Virus record (IMG/VR): IMGVR_UViG_3300022660_000042
DNA from: a virus
Taxonomy: Duplodnaviria; Heunggongvirae; Uroviricota; Caudoviricetes
DNA: 64,000 nt
Direction: 5' to 3' (one strand)
The notes beneath the pieces were generated by a model. It did no database searches and had not been told where the DNA came from. It was given only the letters and a program-made list of their open reading frames with translations. Numbering within the stretch: position 1 is the first letter of the stretch; the number at the start of each line of letters is the position of its first letter. The translations under genes were made by a program, and so were the position numbers. Shown piece after piece: positions 5,424 through 15,490 of this stretch.

Positions 5424-5428
5424 ATTAG

Positions 5429-5502
5429 TGGATCCAGTGGTATTCGAAACCACAACCTCCCGCTTGCAGGGCGGGTGCTCTGCCAAATTGAGCTATGAAC
5501 CC
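5429..5502 (-). tRNA. tRNA-Ala(TGC)
   Basis: Cloverleaf, G3:U70. Confidence 0.9.
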
Positions 5503-5509
5503 ATGTTAG

Positions 5510-5582
5510 TAGCGGCGTCGGGAATCGAACCCGAATGCCAGGATTGAAGGTCCCGTGAACTAAGCCGTTATTCTACGTCGCC
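5510..5582 (-). tRNA. tRNA-Glu(TTC)
   Basis: Cloverleaf, loop CC-TTC-AA. Confidence 0.85.
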
Positions 5583-5592
5583 ATAATTTTAG

Positions 5593-5665
5593 TAGTCCTA
5601 TACAGATTCGAACTGTAGTAACTTGGCTGAGAACCAAGTGGCCTTGACCGCTAGCCGATAGAACC
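5593..5665 (-). tRNA. tRNA-Glu(CTC)
   Basis: Cloverleaf, loop TT-CTC-AG. Confidence 0.85.
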
Positions 5666-5672
5666 ATATTAG

Positions 5673-5747
5673 TGCCACCGACAGGGGTCGAACCTGTGAC
5701 GCGAAGATCTTCGGTCTTCCGCTCTACCAAAACTGAGCTACAGTGGC
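5673..5747 (-). tRNA. tRNA-Phe(GAA)
   Basis: Cloverleaf. Confidence 0.9.
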
Positions 5748-5759
5748 ATATATTTTTTA

Positions 5760-5834
5760 TGGACCGTAGGAGGCTCGAACTCCTGACCCCCAGAATGCAA
5801 ATCTGGTGCTCTACCAAAACTGAGCTAACAGCCC
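5760..5834 (-). tRNA. tRNA-Ala(TGC)
   Basis: Cloverleaf, G3:U70. Confidence 0.9.
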
Positions 5835-5884
5835 GAAAATAAAACTGACCTTACTCATCTCAACGCGTACTATTGACTTTCGGT

Positions 5885-5957
5885 AAGCGCATACGGGATT
5901 CGAACCCGTGACCAGCGGCCTTCACACCGCCTGTTCTACCGCCGAACAAAATGCGTT
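5885..5957 (-). tRNA. Degenerate tRNA (His GTG or Phe GAA ambiguous)
   Basis: Good T and D arms; anticodon arm GCGG-TGTGAAGG-CCGC is irregular. Confidence 0.5.
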
Positions 5958-5968
5958 ATCAGTTTTAG

Positions 5969-6042
5969 TGGACACATATGGGATTCGAACCCATGACGTT
6001 TTCCCTGCCAGGGAAACATTCTACCAACTGAATTAATGGCCC
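5969..6042 (-). tRNA. tRNA-Ala(GGC)
   Basis: G3:U70; 1-nt bulge in acceptor; near duplicate of 6137..6210. Confidence 0.85.
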
Positions 6043-6053
6043 ATGATTTTTAG

Positions 6054-6127
6054 TAGCGCTGTCGGGACTCGAACCCGAATTTCCGACTTGAAAGGCCGGT
6101 GAACTGAACCAGTTATTCGACAGCGCC
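6054..6127 (-). tRNA. tRNA-Glu(TTC)
   Basis: Cloverleaf. Confidence 0.9.
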
Positions 6128-6136
6128 GAAATTTAG

Positions 6137-6210
6137 TGGACACATATGGGATTCGAACCCATGACGTTCTGCGTGCAAAGCAGACATTCTACCAACTGAA
6201 TTAATGGCCC
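6137..6210 (-). tRNA. tRNA-Ala(TGC)
   Basis: G3:U70; same body as 5969..6042 with a different anticodon arm. Confidence 0.85.
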
Positions 6211-6734: not shown

Positions 6735-6846
6735 TGGGGAAGGCAGGATTCGAACCTACGACACACGCCTTGGAATGGAAATAGGAACGTTATATGCATT
6801 TCTACGAAACGTAAATACCGTTGCTCTACCACTGAGCTACTTCCCC
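6735..6846 (-). tRNA. tRNA-like gene with a 40-nt structured insertion; spliced form would read ACGCC-ATTCCAA-GGCGT (TCC)
   Basis: Perfect acceptor, D and T arms; the insert contains the repeated module. Confidence 0.7.
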
Positions 6847-6976: not shown

Positions 6977-7091
6977 CCGGCGAGACTGGATTCGAACCAA
7001 TAACCCAAAGTACCCTTTAGATAGGAAGCATTGGTGCTGAAAGCGAATACTAAATCTTAAACTTTTGCTCTACCGATTGAGCTACTCGCCG
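6977..7091 (-). tRNA. tRNA-like gene with a 49-nt anticodon loop containing the module; anticodon unresolved
   Basis: CGGCGAG/CTCGCCG acceptor, AAAGT/ACTTT anticodon stem. Confidence 0.7.
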
Positions 7092-7201: not shown

Positions 7202-8539
7202 TTATTGTAACTTTTTTTCCTCCTTCAAGTTTTTTCTGGAACGTTCTTTTTGTTCTTCAAGTAACTTGTTGAAACCGTCAAGGTCAACGGTAAGGTTATG
7301 CTGTTCACAAAGCATTTGTGTCAAGTCGACAGGAAAACCATAAGTATCATAAAGCTTGAAAGAATCAAAACCAGACAATACATTTCCATCCATCTTGGAA
7401 ACAATATTGTTAAACTGCTTGATTCCGCTATCAAGGTTCTTCAAGAATCTTGATTCTTCATTCTTGATAACTTCAGTTACGAATTCTTGTCTTTCCTTAA
7501 TTTCCGGATATACGTCACCCATTACGTCGATAACAACCGGAACGAGCTTATACATAAACGGTTCATTGATATTTAACATCTTGCAGAACAAAGAACCTCT
7601 GCGAAGAAGCCTTCTCAATACATATCCGCTTCCCTTATTAGAAGGCTGAAGTCCGTCAGTAATAGAAAATACAAGAGAACGAATATGGTCACTGATAACC
7701 CTGTGAGGCGTGCCGGATTCATCATTCTTATATTCTACACCGCTAAGTTCAACAATCTTATCAATAAGTGGTTTAAACAAGTCGGTTTCATAATTACCGT
7801 TTGTATTCTGAAGAATAGAACAAATACGTTCAAATCCCATACCGGTGTCGATATTCTTCGTAGTCAACGGAATAAGCGTTCCATCAGAAAGTCTTTCTTT
7901 CTCCATGAATACAATATTCCAGATTTCTACGTAACGGTCATTTTCACCGTTTACACCAAGGATAGGATCCTTGAATGTTTCTTCTTGAGTATTCAAATCG
8001 CCACGGTCATAATGAATTTCAGAACAGGGACCGCATGGACCAGTATCACCCATTTCCCAGAAGTTATCTTTTTCTCCGAATCTCATAATACGGTCATCAG
8101 GTAGATTGGAAACTTCCTTCCAGATTTTCCAACTTTCATCATCGGTCTTATAAACAGAAACAAACAATCTTTCCTTAGGTAACTTCCATACTTTCGTTAA
8201 AAGCTCCCAAGACCAAGAAATAGATTCCTTTTTATAATAGTCATTGAAAGACCAGTTTCCAAGCATTTCAAAGAACGTATGATGATAGTTATCACGACCG
8301 ACAACATCGAGGTCATTATGCTTTCCAGATACACGTAAGCATTTCTGGCTGTTACATACACGTTTTAATCCTTGCGGGTTTTGACCAAAAAAGATTGGTT
8401 TAAACTGGTTCATTCCGGAATTCGTGAATAACAACGTCGGATCGTTATTGGGAATAACGGAAGAAGACTTGATAAACTGATGATTTTTTGACATAAAGAA
8501 ATCAATAAAACTTTTTCTAATTTCGCTCGAGGTAAGCAT
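7202..8539 (-). CDS. alaS: Alanyl-tRNA synthetase, N-terminal aminoacylation domain only (445 aa)
   Basis: DPTLLFTNSGMNQFK, SQKCLRVSGKHNDL, HHTFFEMLGNWSF, DTGMGFERI, FKLYDTYGFPVDLT; stops before the editing domain. Confidence 0.95.
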   Translation of the reverse strand: MLTSSEIRKSFIDFFMSKNHQFIKSSSVIPNNDPTLLFTNSGMNQFKPIFFGQNPQGLKRVCNSQKCLRVSGKHNDLDVVGRDNYHHTFFEMLGNWSFNDYYKKESISWSWELLTKVWKLPKERLFVSVYKTDDESWKIWKEVSNLPDDRIMRFGEKDNFWEMGDTGPCGPCSEIHYDRGDLNTQEETFKDPILGVNGENDRYVEIWNIVFMEKERLSDGTLIPLTTKNIDTGMGFERICSILQNTNGNYETDLFKPLIDKIVELSGVEYKNDESGTPHRVISDHIRSLVFSITDGLQPSNKGSGYVLRRLLRRGSLFCKMLNINEPFMYKLVPVVIDVMGDVYPEIKERQEFVTEVIKNEESRFLKNLDSGIKQFNNIVSKMDGNVLSGFDSFKLYDTYGFPVDLTQMLCEQHNLTVDLDGFNKLLEEQKERSRKNLKEEKKLQ

Positions 8540-8551
8540 TTTTATTCTCCT

Positions 8552-8587
8552 ATAAAAATTAAAAGGTTCCTGTTGTGCACAGGAACC
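8552..8587 (-). terminator. Attenuator terminator 3 (before alaS)
   Basis: GGTTCCTGT-GCACA-ACAGGAACC + TTTTAATTTTT. Confidence 0.85.
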
Positions 8588-8622
8588 AAAGTTTAGTTAA
8601 TGAATATACCCATACACATATA

Positions 8623-8682
8623 TTATGTCATAATATATGCGGCTGCTGCGAAAATGCGAGTATTTAATATATTCATCGTCAT
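8623..8682 (-). CDS. Putative alaS leader peptide MTMNILNTRIFAAAAYIMT (not in ORF track)
   Basis: Four tandem Ala codons GCA GCA GCC GCA; lies between a TATATA promoter and the terminator. Confidence 0.8.
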   Translation of the reverse strand: MTMNILNTRIFAAAAYIMT

Positions 8683-8723
8683 GTCTTAAATATATATAAT
8701 TTTTCTATTTTTGTAAATGCTTT

Positions 8724-9146
8724 TTATTCAGGATGTTTGATGTCTTCTATTTCTCGTACCATGTCTCTTTCCGGGCTTTCTGAATTTTCATCCAAATAAC
8801 GACCAGTAAGAATCATAGTATCATGGTCGGTAAATTCAAGATTCGGTTTACCTTCGGCCATATTCTCATAGTCCTCAGTAACAAGGTCTCTCCAAGAAGT
8901 ATAACCGATTTGGTCCCAATTCCTATCGAAGAATTGGACTGCATTAGTTCCAACTTCCTTGGCGACAACTGCACCGAACATTCCATCCTTTCGCATTATA
9001 GATAAACCAGAAATGAATTTACCCTTTTTGGTGGCACAAGAATGCATAATCTTCAACGGCTTATTCTCAAAAACAATTCTAAGCATACCGAAAATATCAA
9101 GTGCCTTTACCGGATGTTCAACAGTTTTAATTTCTGGAAGTTCCAT
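8724..9146 (-). CDS. hypothetical protein
   Basis: ORF track. Confidence 0.7.
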   Translation of the reverse strand: MELPEIKTVEHPVKALDIFGMLRIVFENKPLKIMHSCATKKGKFISGLSIMRKDGMFGAVVAKEVGTNAVQFFDRNWDQIGYTSWRDLVTEDYENMAEGKPNLEFTDHDTMILTGRYLDENSESPERDMVREIEDIKHPE

Positions 9147-14930: not shown

Positions 14931-15043
14931 TCGGAGAGGCACGGCTCGAACGTGCGACCTGCGGGTTATAAGCCATTAATAGGAACAACCTGTGCCATGA
15001 GCGGGTAGTAAAGTACGCTGCTCTACCACTGAGCTACTCTCCA
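14931..15043 (-). tRNA. tRNA with a 41-nt structured insertion; spliced form GCGGG-CTTATAA-CCCGC = tRNA-Ile(TAT)
   Basis: Canonical acceptor, D and T arms; insert lies between nt 29 and 30. Confidence 0.75.
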
Positions 15044-15414: not shown

Positions 15415-15490
15415 TAGCGGGAGTTGGATTCGAACCAACGACCTTTGGATTATGAGCCCAACGAGCTAAACCGGACTGCTCTATCCCGCG
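15415..15490 (-). tRNA. tRNA-fMet(CAT)
   Basis: CGCGGGA acceptor, C1 unpaired, loop CT-CAT-AA. Confidence 0.85.

Follow-up and report, generated by a model that had tools for sequence, protein, structure and literature searches.

When does a phage that carries its own alanyl-tRNA synthetase (AlaRS) make the enzyme, and what could tell it to do so? Huge phages carry both tRNAs and synthetases, and to our knowledge the regulation of these genes is almost unexplored. The question is raised here by a short unit directly before the alaS gene of a Caudoviricetes virus (IMG/VR record IMGVR_UViG_3300022660_000042). An earlier note on this DNA had proposed that Ala codons in a small leader reading frame control the transcription of alaS by attenuation. 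Throughout, "the window" means the whole 64,000-nucleotide stretch of the record that was analyzed, and positions are counted within it. Comparison of sequences and predicted folds supports the proposed reading, and we consider it likely that transcription of the phage alaS is gated by this unit, acting as a ribosome-mediated leader-peptide attenuator. The phage would then probably make AlaRS just when Ala codons are read slowly.

Genome setting and the alaS product

The virus record comprises 411 kb, is 98% complete as estimated by CheckV, and was obtained from ruminant gut. Among its RNA genes are at least 26 for tRNAs and one for a tmRNA, and an RNA motif associated with the rumen is also present; the genes of the window are oriented on the minus strand. 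The alaS product matched the Pfam family tRNA-synt_2c (PF01411) over positions 1-437 of the 552-position profile (E value, 1e-183), and it is co-linear with the crystallised bacterial AlaRS catalytic fragments 3hxu (441 aa) and 1riq. The editing (tRNA_SAD) and C-terminal domains are absent, the end of the protein coinciding with the end of the crystallised fragments. On these matches, the predicted product is a class IIc AlaRS aminoacylation and tRNA-recognition core; because it has no editing domain, mischarging with Ser or Gly would stay uncorrected in cis. Its nearest cellular relatives are AlaRS proteins of the Fibrobacter type, at 60-67% identity. The phage probably infects a relative of Fibrobacter. 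Searches with four other synthetase families (PF00587, PF00152, PF00133, and PF00749) returned no match in this genome, where alaS was the only synthetase gene found; no second synthetase leader was thus available for comparison.

Several tRNA genes lie near alaS. Four phage tRNA-Ala genes (window 5428-6210) have the anticodon UGC in three cases and GGC in one. All four start with GGG, and at least two appear by eye to have the AlaRS identity pair G3:U70 in the acceptor stem. The Ala codons of the leader, GCA and GCC, are those read directly by these anticodons. Three Rfam tRNA matches of 112-115 nt (window 6735-6846, 6977-7091, and 14931-15043) represent tRNA-like genes with long insertions, and the two of these long genes just downstream of alaS each have a promoter-like site of their own (for example, TTGACA-17-TATATT at 7197-7169).

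Promoter-like site, leader reading frame, and Ala codons

Features of the unit are listed in Table 1. The promoter-like site and the TTTTTATATATAAT promoter carried by the sibling units described below are related. In the alaS unit, the leader ATG follows 7 nt after the end of the -10 box and thus lies approximately at the predicted transcription start. No Shine-Dalgarno site precedes the reading frame; the attenuator model therefore needs leaderless initiation. The near-leaderless 19-aa frame with four tandem Ala codons that the earlier note had described was thus found again where it had been placed, and the -10 box fits it, the start itself being a prediction.

Table 1. Features of the alaS unit and their positions in the window
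Feature	Position	Strand	Details
Promoter-like site	8689..8717	-	-35 TTTACA 8717-8712; 17-nt spacer; -10 TATATT 8694-8689; scores 10/12
Leader ORF	8623..8682	-	MTMNILNTRIFAAAAYIMT; ATG 8682; 19 codons plus TAA (8625-8623); read from sequence
Ala codons, proposed regulatory codons	8638..8649	-	four in tandem, GCA GCA GCC GCA; read from sequence
Resting-state extended hairpin (anti-antiterminator)	8598..8678	-	minimum-free-energy fold and RNAalifold consensus
Resting hairpin, outer stem	8678-8666 with 8610-8598	-	RNAalifold, seven variants
Resting hairpin, middle stem	8663-8660 with 8615-8612	-	RNAalifold, seven variants
Resting hairpin, inner hairpin	8640-8630 with 8626-8616	-	RNAalifold, seven variants
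Antiterminator 5' strand (predicted)	8609..8618	-	UGUGUAUGGG; begins 5 nt past the leader stop codon
Antiterminator 3' strand (predicted)	8574..8583	-	CCUGUGCACA; terminator 5' arm plus loop
Intrinsic terminator (predicted)	8554..8587	-	9-bp stem GGTTCCTGT / ACAGGAACC (8587-8579 with 8573-8565); loop GCACA; then U-tract TTTTAATTTTT (8564-8554); -14.3 kcal/mol
alaS Shine-Dalgarno GGAG	8547..8550	-	7 nt before the alaS ATG (8539); read from sequence
alaS	7202..8539	-	445-aa alanyl-tRNA synthetase catalytic core; Pfam match

Runs of four GCN codons are rare on the coding strand, with six in the whole 411-kb genome. Three lie inside long genes, and one, at genome position 300340, is outside any long frame but antisense to a gene and was set aside as unrelated. 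The two that are intergenic belong to the alaS leader and to the leader that precedes a tRNA-Ala/Glu/Phe cluster. Among 93 other alaS loci (79 cellular and 14 from viral collections), none had a short ORF with four alanines upstream of the gene. RNA evidence consisted of four metatranscriptome-labelled runs, available as contigs of low, even depth, which cannot show transcript starts, ends, or levels. Some of these contigs span the leader and the terminator, and two stop at 8608-8611; DNA carry-over is possible.

Predicted terminator and mutually exclusive folds

Downstream of the leader, the order of terminator, Shine-Dalgarno site, and alaS was as the earlier note had given it. Leakage through the terminator is possible, as its U-tract (UUUUAAUUUUU) contains an interruption (UUUUAA...). 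A promoter downstream of the hairpin had been set as the observation that would speak against control at this point; no promoter-like site is listed between hairpin and alaS, and this gap of 25 nt is too small for one.

The earlier note had also proposed that TGTATGGG (8616-8609) pairs with the 5' arm of the terminator through G:U pairs. This pairing was recovered and extends further, to a 10-bp helix of 8618-8609 with 8583-8574 that contains three G-U pairs and has a predicted stability of -12.0 to -13.6 kcal/mol. The loop bases of the terminator contribute substantially to it: the arm without them offers 5 weak pairs, and with them 10. Shuffled sequences gave a duplex as good in 47 of 1000 cases (~5%), which is marginal when taken alone. 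The second alternative, between ATGAATATA and TATATTCAT, corresponds to the outer stem of the minimum-free-energy fold and carries one G-C to A-U covariation. In the RNAalifold consensus, the resting hairpin to which this stem belongs leaves a single base of the 10-base antiterminator strand free, the first G of GGG; the other nine are paired, partly with the last Ala codon. The leader fold was better than that of all 200 dinucleotide shuffles (z = -3.65).

Positions of a translating ribosome were then imposed on five variants of the unit. Specifically, only RNA downstream of the ribosome was folded, and the front edge was assumed to lie at A-site +13. A ribosome that stalls at the Ala codons would leave the antiterminator (-12.0 to -13.6 kcal/mol) free to form ahead of synthesis of the 3' arm of the terminator, in all five variants. 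With the ribosome at the stop codon, pairing worth only -2.4 to -3.9 kcal/mol would be left, against -14.3 kcal/mol for the terminator, again in 5/5. A masked-fold calculation in which helices were allowed to enclose the ribosome retained the terminator; it was dropped as physically unrealistic. On the assumed footprint, the unit therefore combines the structural elements of a leader-peptide attenuator, namely a short ORF, cognate codons, a terminator, an antiterminator that excludes it, and an anti-antiterminator.

Sibling units before the tRNA clusters

Four more units of the same design, re-derived here, lie in the window, each before a tRNA cluster and each with a TTTTTATATATAAT-type promoter, a short leader ORF, and a related ..UCCUGU.. 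terminator. All five units contain a strand at or near the leader stop codon that is complementary to the 5' arm of the terminator. Across the five, 60, 0, 47, 8, and 6 of 1000 shuffles matched the antiterminator helix. The leaders of the siblings match the tRNA genes behind them, and the true assignment of leaders to genes was the best of 120 permutations. Two properties set the alaS unit apart: it alone has the antiterminator strand after the stop codon, and it has no Shine-Dalgarno site, whereas the other four carry sites of the AAGG type. The alaS unit is paralogous to the Ala/Glu/Phe unit but has been shortened; the two share the opening ATGAC(T/G)ATGAA and the same terminator. Relative to that unit, 16 nt of the 5' untranslated region, including the Shine-Dalgarno site, were lost, and the middle part of the leader was deleted, so that the Ala run alone remains.

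Two further loci resemble these units. Outside the window, at G000:C1:212267-212460 (coding strand), is a sixth unit, in which the TTTTTATATATAAT promoter is followed by the ribosome site AAAAGGA and a leader of 8 codons (MTHQLYTY); a terminator rich in GC, with its U-tract, separates this leader from genes for tRNA-Tyr (two), Cys, Met, and Ser (three). The TTTTTATATATAAT promoter also occurs at window 16131 on the minus strand, in a region running down to ~15490 in which no leader ORF is obvious; some 600 nt of GC-richer sequence with no long ORFs and no Rfam family follow it, and then a tRNA-Met gene (15415-15490).

Substitution pattern in metagenomic relatives

The protein cluster of this AlaRS has 54 members from ruminant-gut assemblies, and the ten cluster sequences looked up contained seven distinct versions of the module. 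These bear first on the view that the reading frame is vestigial, a decayed duplicate of the Ala/Glu/Phe leader, and that a leaky or constitutive terminator merely gives alaS a low, fixed read-through. The history of shortening with loss of the Shine-Dalgarno site and the interrupted U-tract would fit such decay, but the deletions spared exactly the amino acid that matches the downstream gene, and start, frame, and stop of the leader are kept in all seven variants. In L005, the indels relative to the window all fall outside the ORF. The variants read GCA GCC GCA GCA or GCA GCA GCA GCA, so that each Ala codon keeps its first two bases and changes are confined to the third position (GCA/GCC). 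The one exception, GCA GCA TCA GCA, is a point for the vestigial view, as are the RNA-library contigs that span the terminator, though the latter are unable to show transcripts. Against it stands the conservation of the module as a whole, whose divergence of 0.02-0.13 compares with 0.15-0.37 at 4-fold sites of alaS (~3 times more conserved), and of the antiterminator block, which is near-invariant. In L002, alignment columns 46-75, covering the inner hairpin and the antiterminator strand, had no change at any of 30 positions despite a neutral divergence of 0.37. Overall, we regard a vestigial leader as unlikely.

The exceptional variant, L094 (659-718), carries a Ser codon in place of its third Ala codon (GCA to TCA). 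The resulting Ala-Ala-Ser-Ala is a possible natural test of the number of Ala codons that the switch needs.

Compensatory changes were found at four stem pairs. Two belong to the terminator; the others, at alignment columns 9/82 and 46/64, belong to the resting hairpin, where the outer stem and the inner hairpin each have one. Over the stems, 97.8% of cells were paired, and none of 500 shuffles matched the observed covariation score; in the terminator, 100% of cells were paired. Because the relatives are close (92% mean identity), this covariation rests on few events. The antiterminator strand varied by a single G-to-A change, which turns a G-U pair into A-U; since it hardly varies, covariation neither tests nor contradicts the antiterminator helix. 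The GGAG of alaS is conserved in all variants. Three different genes precede the module in these relatives, and in each of the contexts similarity begins at the -35 box.

The small ORF that occupies this upstream position (window 8724-9146; L002:237-482; L008:779-1303) encodes unrelated proteins of 140, 81, and 174 aa with no Pfam match. A NADAR gene farther upstream and the alaS module stay put; the position between them is a hotspot of gene swapping, with the -35 box as its exact border.

A second alternative is that the promoter-to-terminator transcript of ~120 nt is itself the product, either a small RNA or the mRNA of a 19-aa peptide, or that the nascent peptide senses a signal other than Ala-tRNA. 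Promoter, strongly structured RNA, and terminator do make up a complete small gene, and a block of ~30 nt (8637-8609) is invariant beyond the needs of pairing. The peptide, however, drifts freely outside the Ala run, with nonsynonymous changes in codons 2-10 (T2M, M3I, I5V, N7H, R9S/H, and I10V/T/F), a pattern that speaks against both a functional peptide and sensing by the nascent chain. Nor would a small RNA need to lie 25 nt before alaS or to contain a strand complementary to the terminator, and five units with gene-matched leaders argue for control in cis. The leader region returned nothing at the Rfam gathering score and no family at E < 0.1. We give this explanation a low probability, slightly below that of a vestigial leader; an attenuated transcript could have a second role. 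Judged by sequence, the combination of a drifting peptide, a conserved Ala identity, and a conserved RNA with several pairing partners is that predicted for an attenuator, unlike that of a functional small protein.

Escherichia coli AlaRS represses its own promoter. Read-through set by a binding factor, whether uncharged tRNA-Ala acting as in a T-box or AlaRS acting autogenously, nevertheless seems very improbable for the phage unit: although the leader is strongly structured and T-box control is common for Firmicute synthetase genes (cited in PMC1262725), the leader of ~120 nt is well short of a typical T-box leader, reading it by eye disclosed no specifier loop or T-box sequence, Rfam gave no T-box match even at E up to 10, and a conserved ORF with synonymous Ala changes would be left without explanation.

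Several lines of evidence favor Ala-codon-dependent attenuation: the structural elements agree with the geometry expected of a ribosome, the substitution pattern in the seven relatives is that predicted for regulatory codons and alternative helices, and sibling units of the same design have leaders matched to their downstream genes.

Collections searched for the module

Further collections were searched for the module. Peptide patterns and a 37-nt leader pattern found no close relatives in IMG/VR, and the phage GenBank collection gave just distant pieces of alaS. The best match there, L105 (CAKLQF020000006.1, labelled Acinetobacter phage MD-2021a), was rejected, as it looks like a misfiled bacterial chromosome contig; its alaS region contains hisZ, epd, a full-length alaS, and thrA. 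JGI metagenome searches yielded cellular full-length alaS genes alone, at no more than 67% identity and none with a leader, and these loci were reused as a negative control. L003, a 64% relative, and L004 have bacterial contexts without the module and were set aside. In viral contigs, a profile search located 17 alaS loci, the majority of them host genes at the edges of prophages, and a leader with an Ala run was present in none of the 14 scanned.

Proposed mechanism and implications

In the mechanism that we favor, transcription would start at, or a few bases from, the leader ATG, and a ribosome would translate the 19-codon leader, probably as a leaderless message, while RNA polymerase nears the terminator. 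When charged tRNA-Ala is plentiful, the ribosome would reach the stop codon. Because the antiterminator strand of this unit lies past that codon, a terminating ribosome would mask just its first six or so bases (of 8618-8609); the terminator (8587-8565) would then form, and transcription would end 15-25 nt short of alaS. Slow decoding of Ala codons would instead stall the ribosome at 8649-8638, where it would occupy 8663-8660 and 8640-8630, with which the antiterminator strand otherwise pairs. The strand freed in this way would pair with 8583-8574 before the 3' arm of the terminator is made, and polymerase would read through into alaS. The 5' arm of the outer stem, just behind the stalled ribosome, could in principle re-pair with G8610-8609. 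If the leader is not translated at all, the extended hairpin would sequester the strand, and termination would be the default. Four elements of this scheme are inferred: where transcription starts, that the leader is translated as a leaderless message, how far the ribosome covers the RNA (A-site +13), and what the physiological signal is.

With somewhat better than even confidence, we propose that an aminoacyl-tRNA synthetase gene is here, for the first time in a virus, controlled by ribosome-mediated attenuation, and that the unit forms one arm of a phage-encoded regulon that senses the speed of codon reading. In such a regulon, the tRNA clusters and alaS would each be switched on just when the matching codons are read slowly. 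The phage might thereby match its output of AlaRS to its own supply of tRNA-Ala or to a host attack on tRNA charging. If this is true, a virus would be monitoring the translation capacity of its host in real time and supplementing it on demand. The unit would also supply a compact part of ~130 nt with which attenuation by a leaderless leader could be studied; taken with the siblings before the tRNA clusters, it opens feedback control of viral translation genes to direct tests with reporters.

Comparison with known systems

The statement in the earlier note that alaS is usually under T-box or autogenous control holds in part; these are not the only modes, as a leader peptide is predicted before alaS in Streptomyces lividans (PMC8079986). 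Like the phage unit, the T-box of Firmicutes would raise synthetase output in response to poor charging of the cognate tRNA, through a choice between terminator and antiterminator, but it reads the uncharged tRNA directly and needs no ORF, and the phage leader is much shorter and without an Rfam T-box match. That attenuation of synthetase genes is known from E. coli pheST, as the earlier note had said, is borne out by PMC1262725, which cites pheST as the model. With its leader pheM, pheST resembles the phage unit in its short ORF rich in cognate codons, in its alternative hairpins of antiterminator and terminator, and in the intrinsic terminator that directly precedes the synthetase gene. It differs in being cellular, in using Phe codons, and in having a leader with a ribosome-binding site, and no sequence relationship between the two was found; the phage leader is predicted to be leaderless and has its antiterminator strand after the stop codon.

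Leader-peptide attenuators have also been predicted for trpS and leuS of Streptomyces (PMC1262725). In S. lividans, the alaL leader, 22 aa with 6 Ala, was predicted from RNA-seq to precede alaS (PMC8079986). It is thus, like the phage leader, an Ala-rich short ORF directly upstream of alaS; in contrast, its Ala codons are scattered, three of them C-terminal, where the phage has four together in the middle of the leader, and it comes from a high-GC actinobacterium with a full-length AlaRS and is a prediction alone. Transcripts of leuL1, ilvL, trpL2, and metL are among several leaderless leaders of S. lividans, which provide a precedent for leaderless leader peptides (PMC8079986).

From its third codon onward, the phage leader (MNILNTRIFAAA, window 8653-8676) resembles S. 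lividans AlaL (MNVIGRNIFATA), with six of the first ten residues identical. This likeness (MNVIGRNIFA versus MNILNTRIFA) was seen by eye and could reflect chance or a constraint shared by alaS leaders.

Phage examples of leader-peptide attenuation were absent from the literature searched. Parallels in design are the trpL, leuL, hisL, and thrL leaders of enterobacteria, which share with the phage unit the 1:2, 2:3, and 3:4 pairings, tandem codons, and termination by default when the leader is not translated. In leuL, four regulatory codons stand in a row. These leaders control operons for amino-acid synthesis, whereas the phage unit would control a viral charging enzyme and, unlike them, is one of a family of siblings that precede tRNA genes. 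What is proposed here is a known class of control in an unusual place, a virus.
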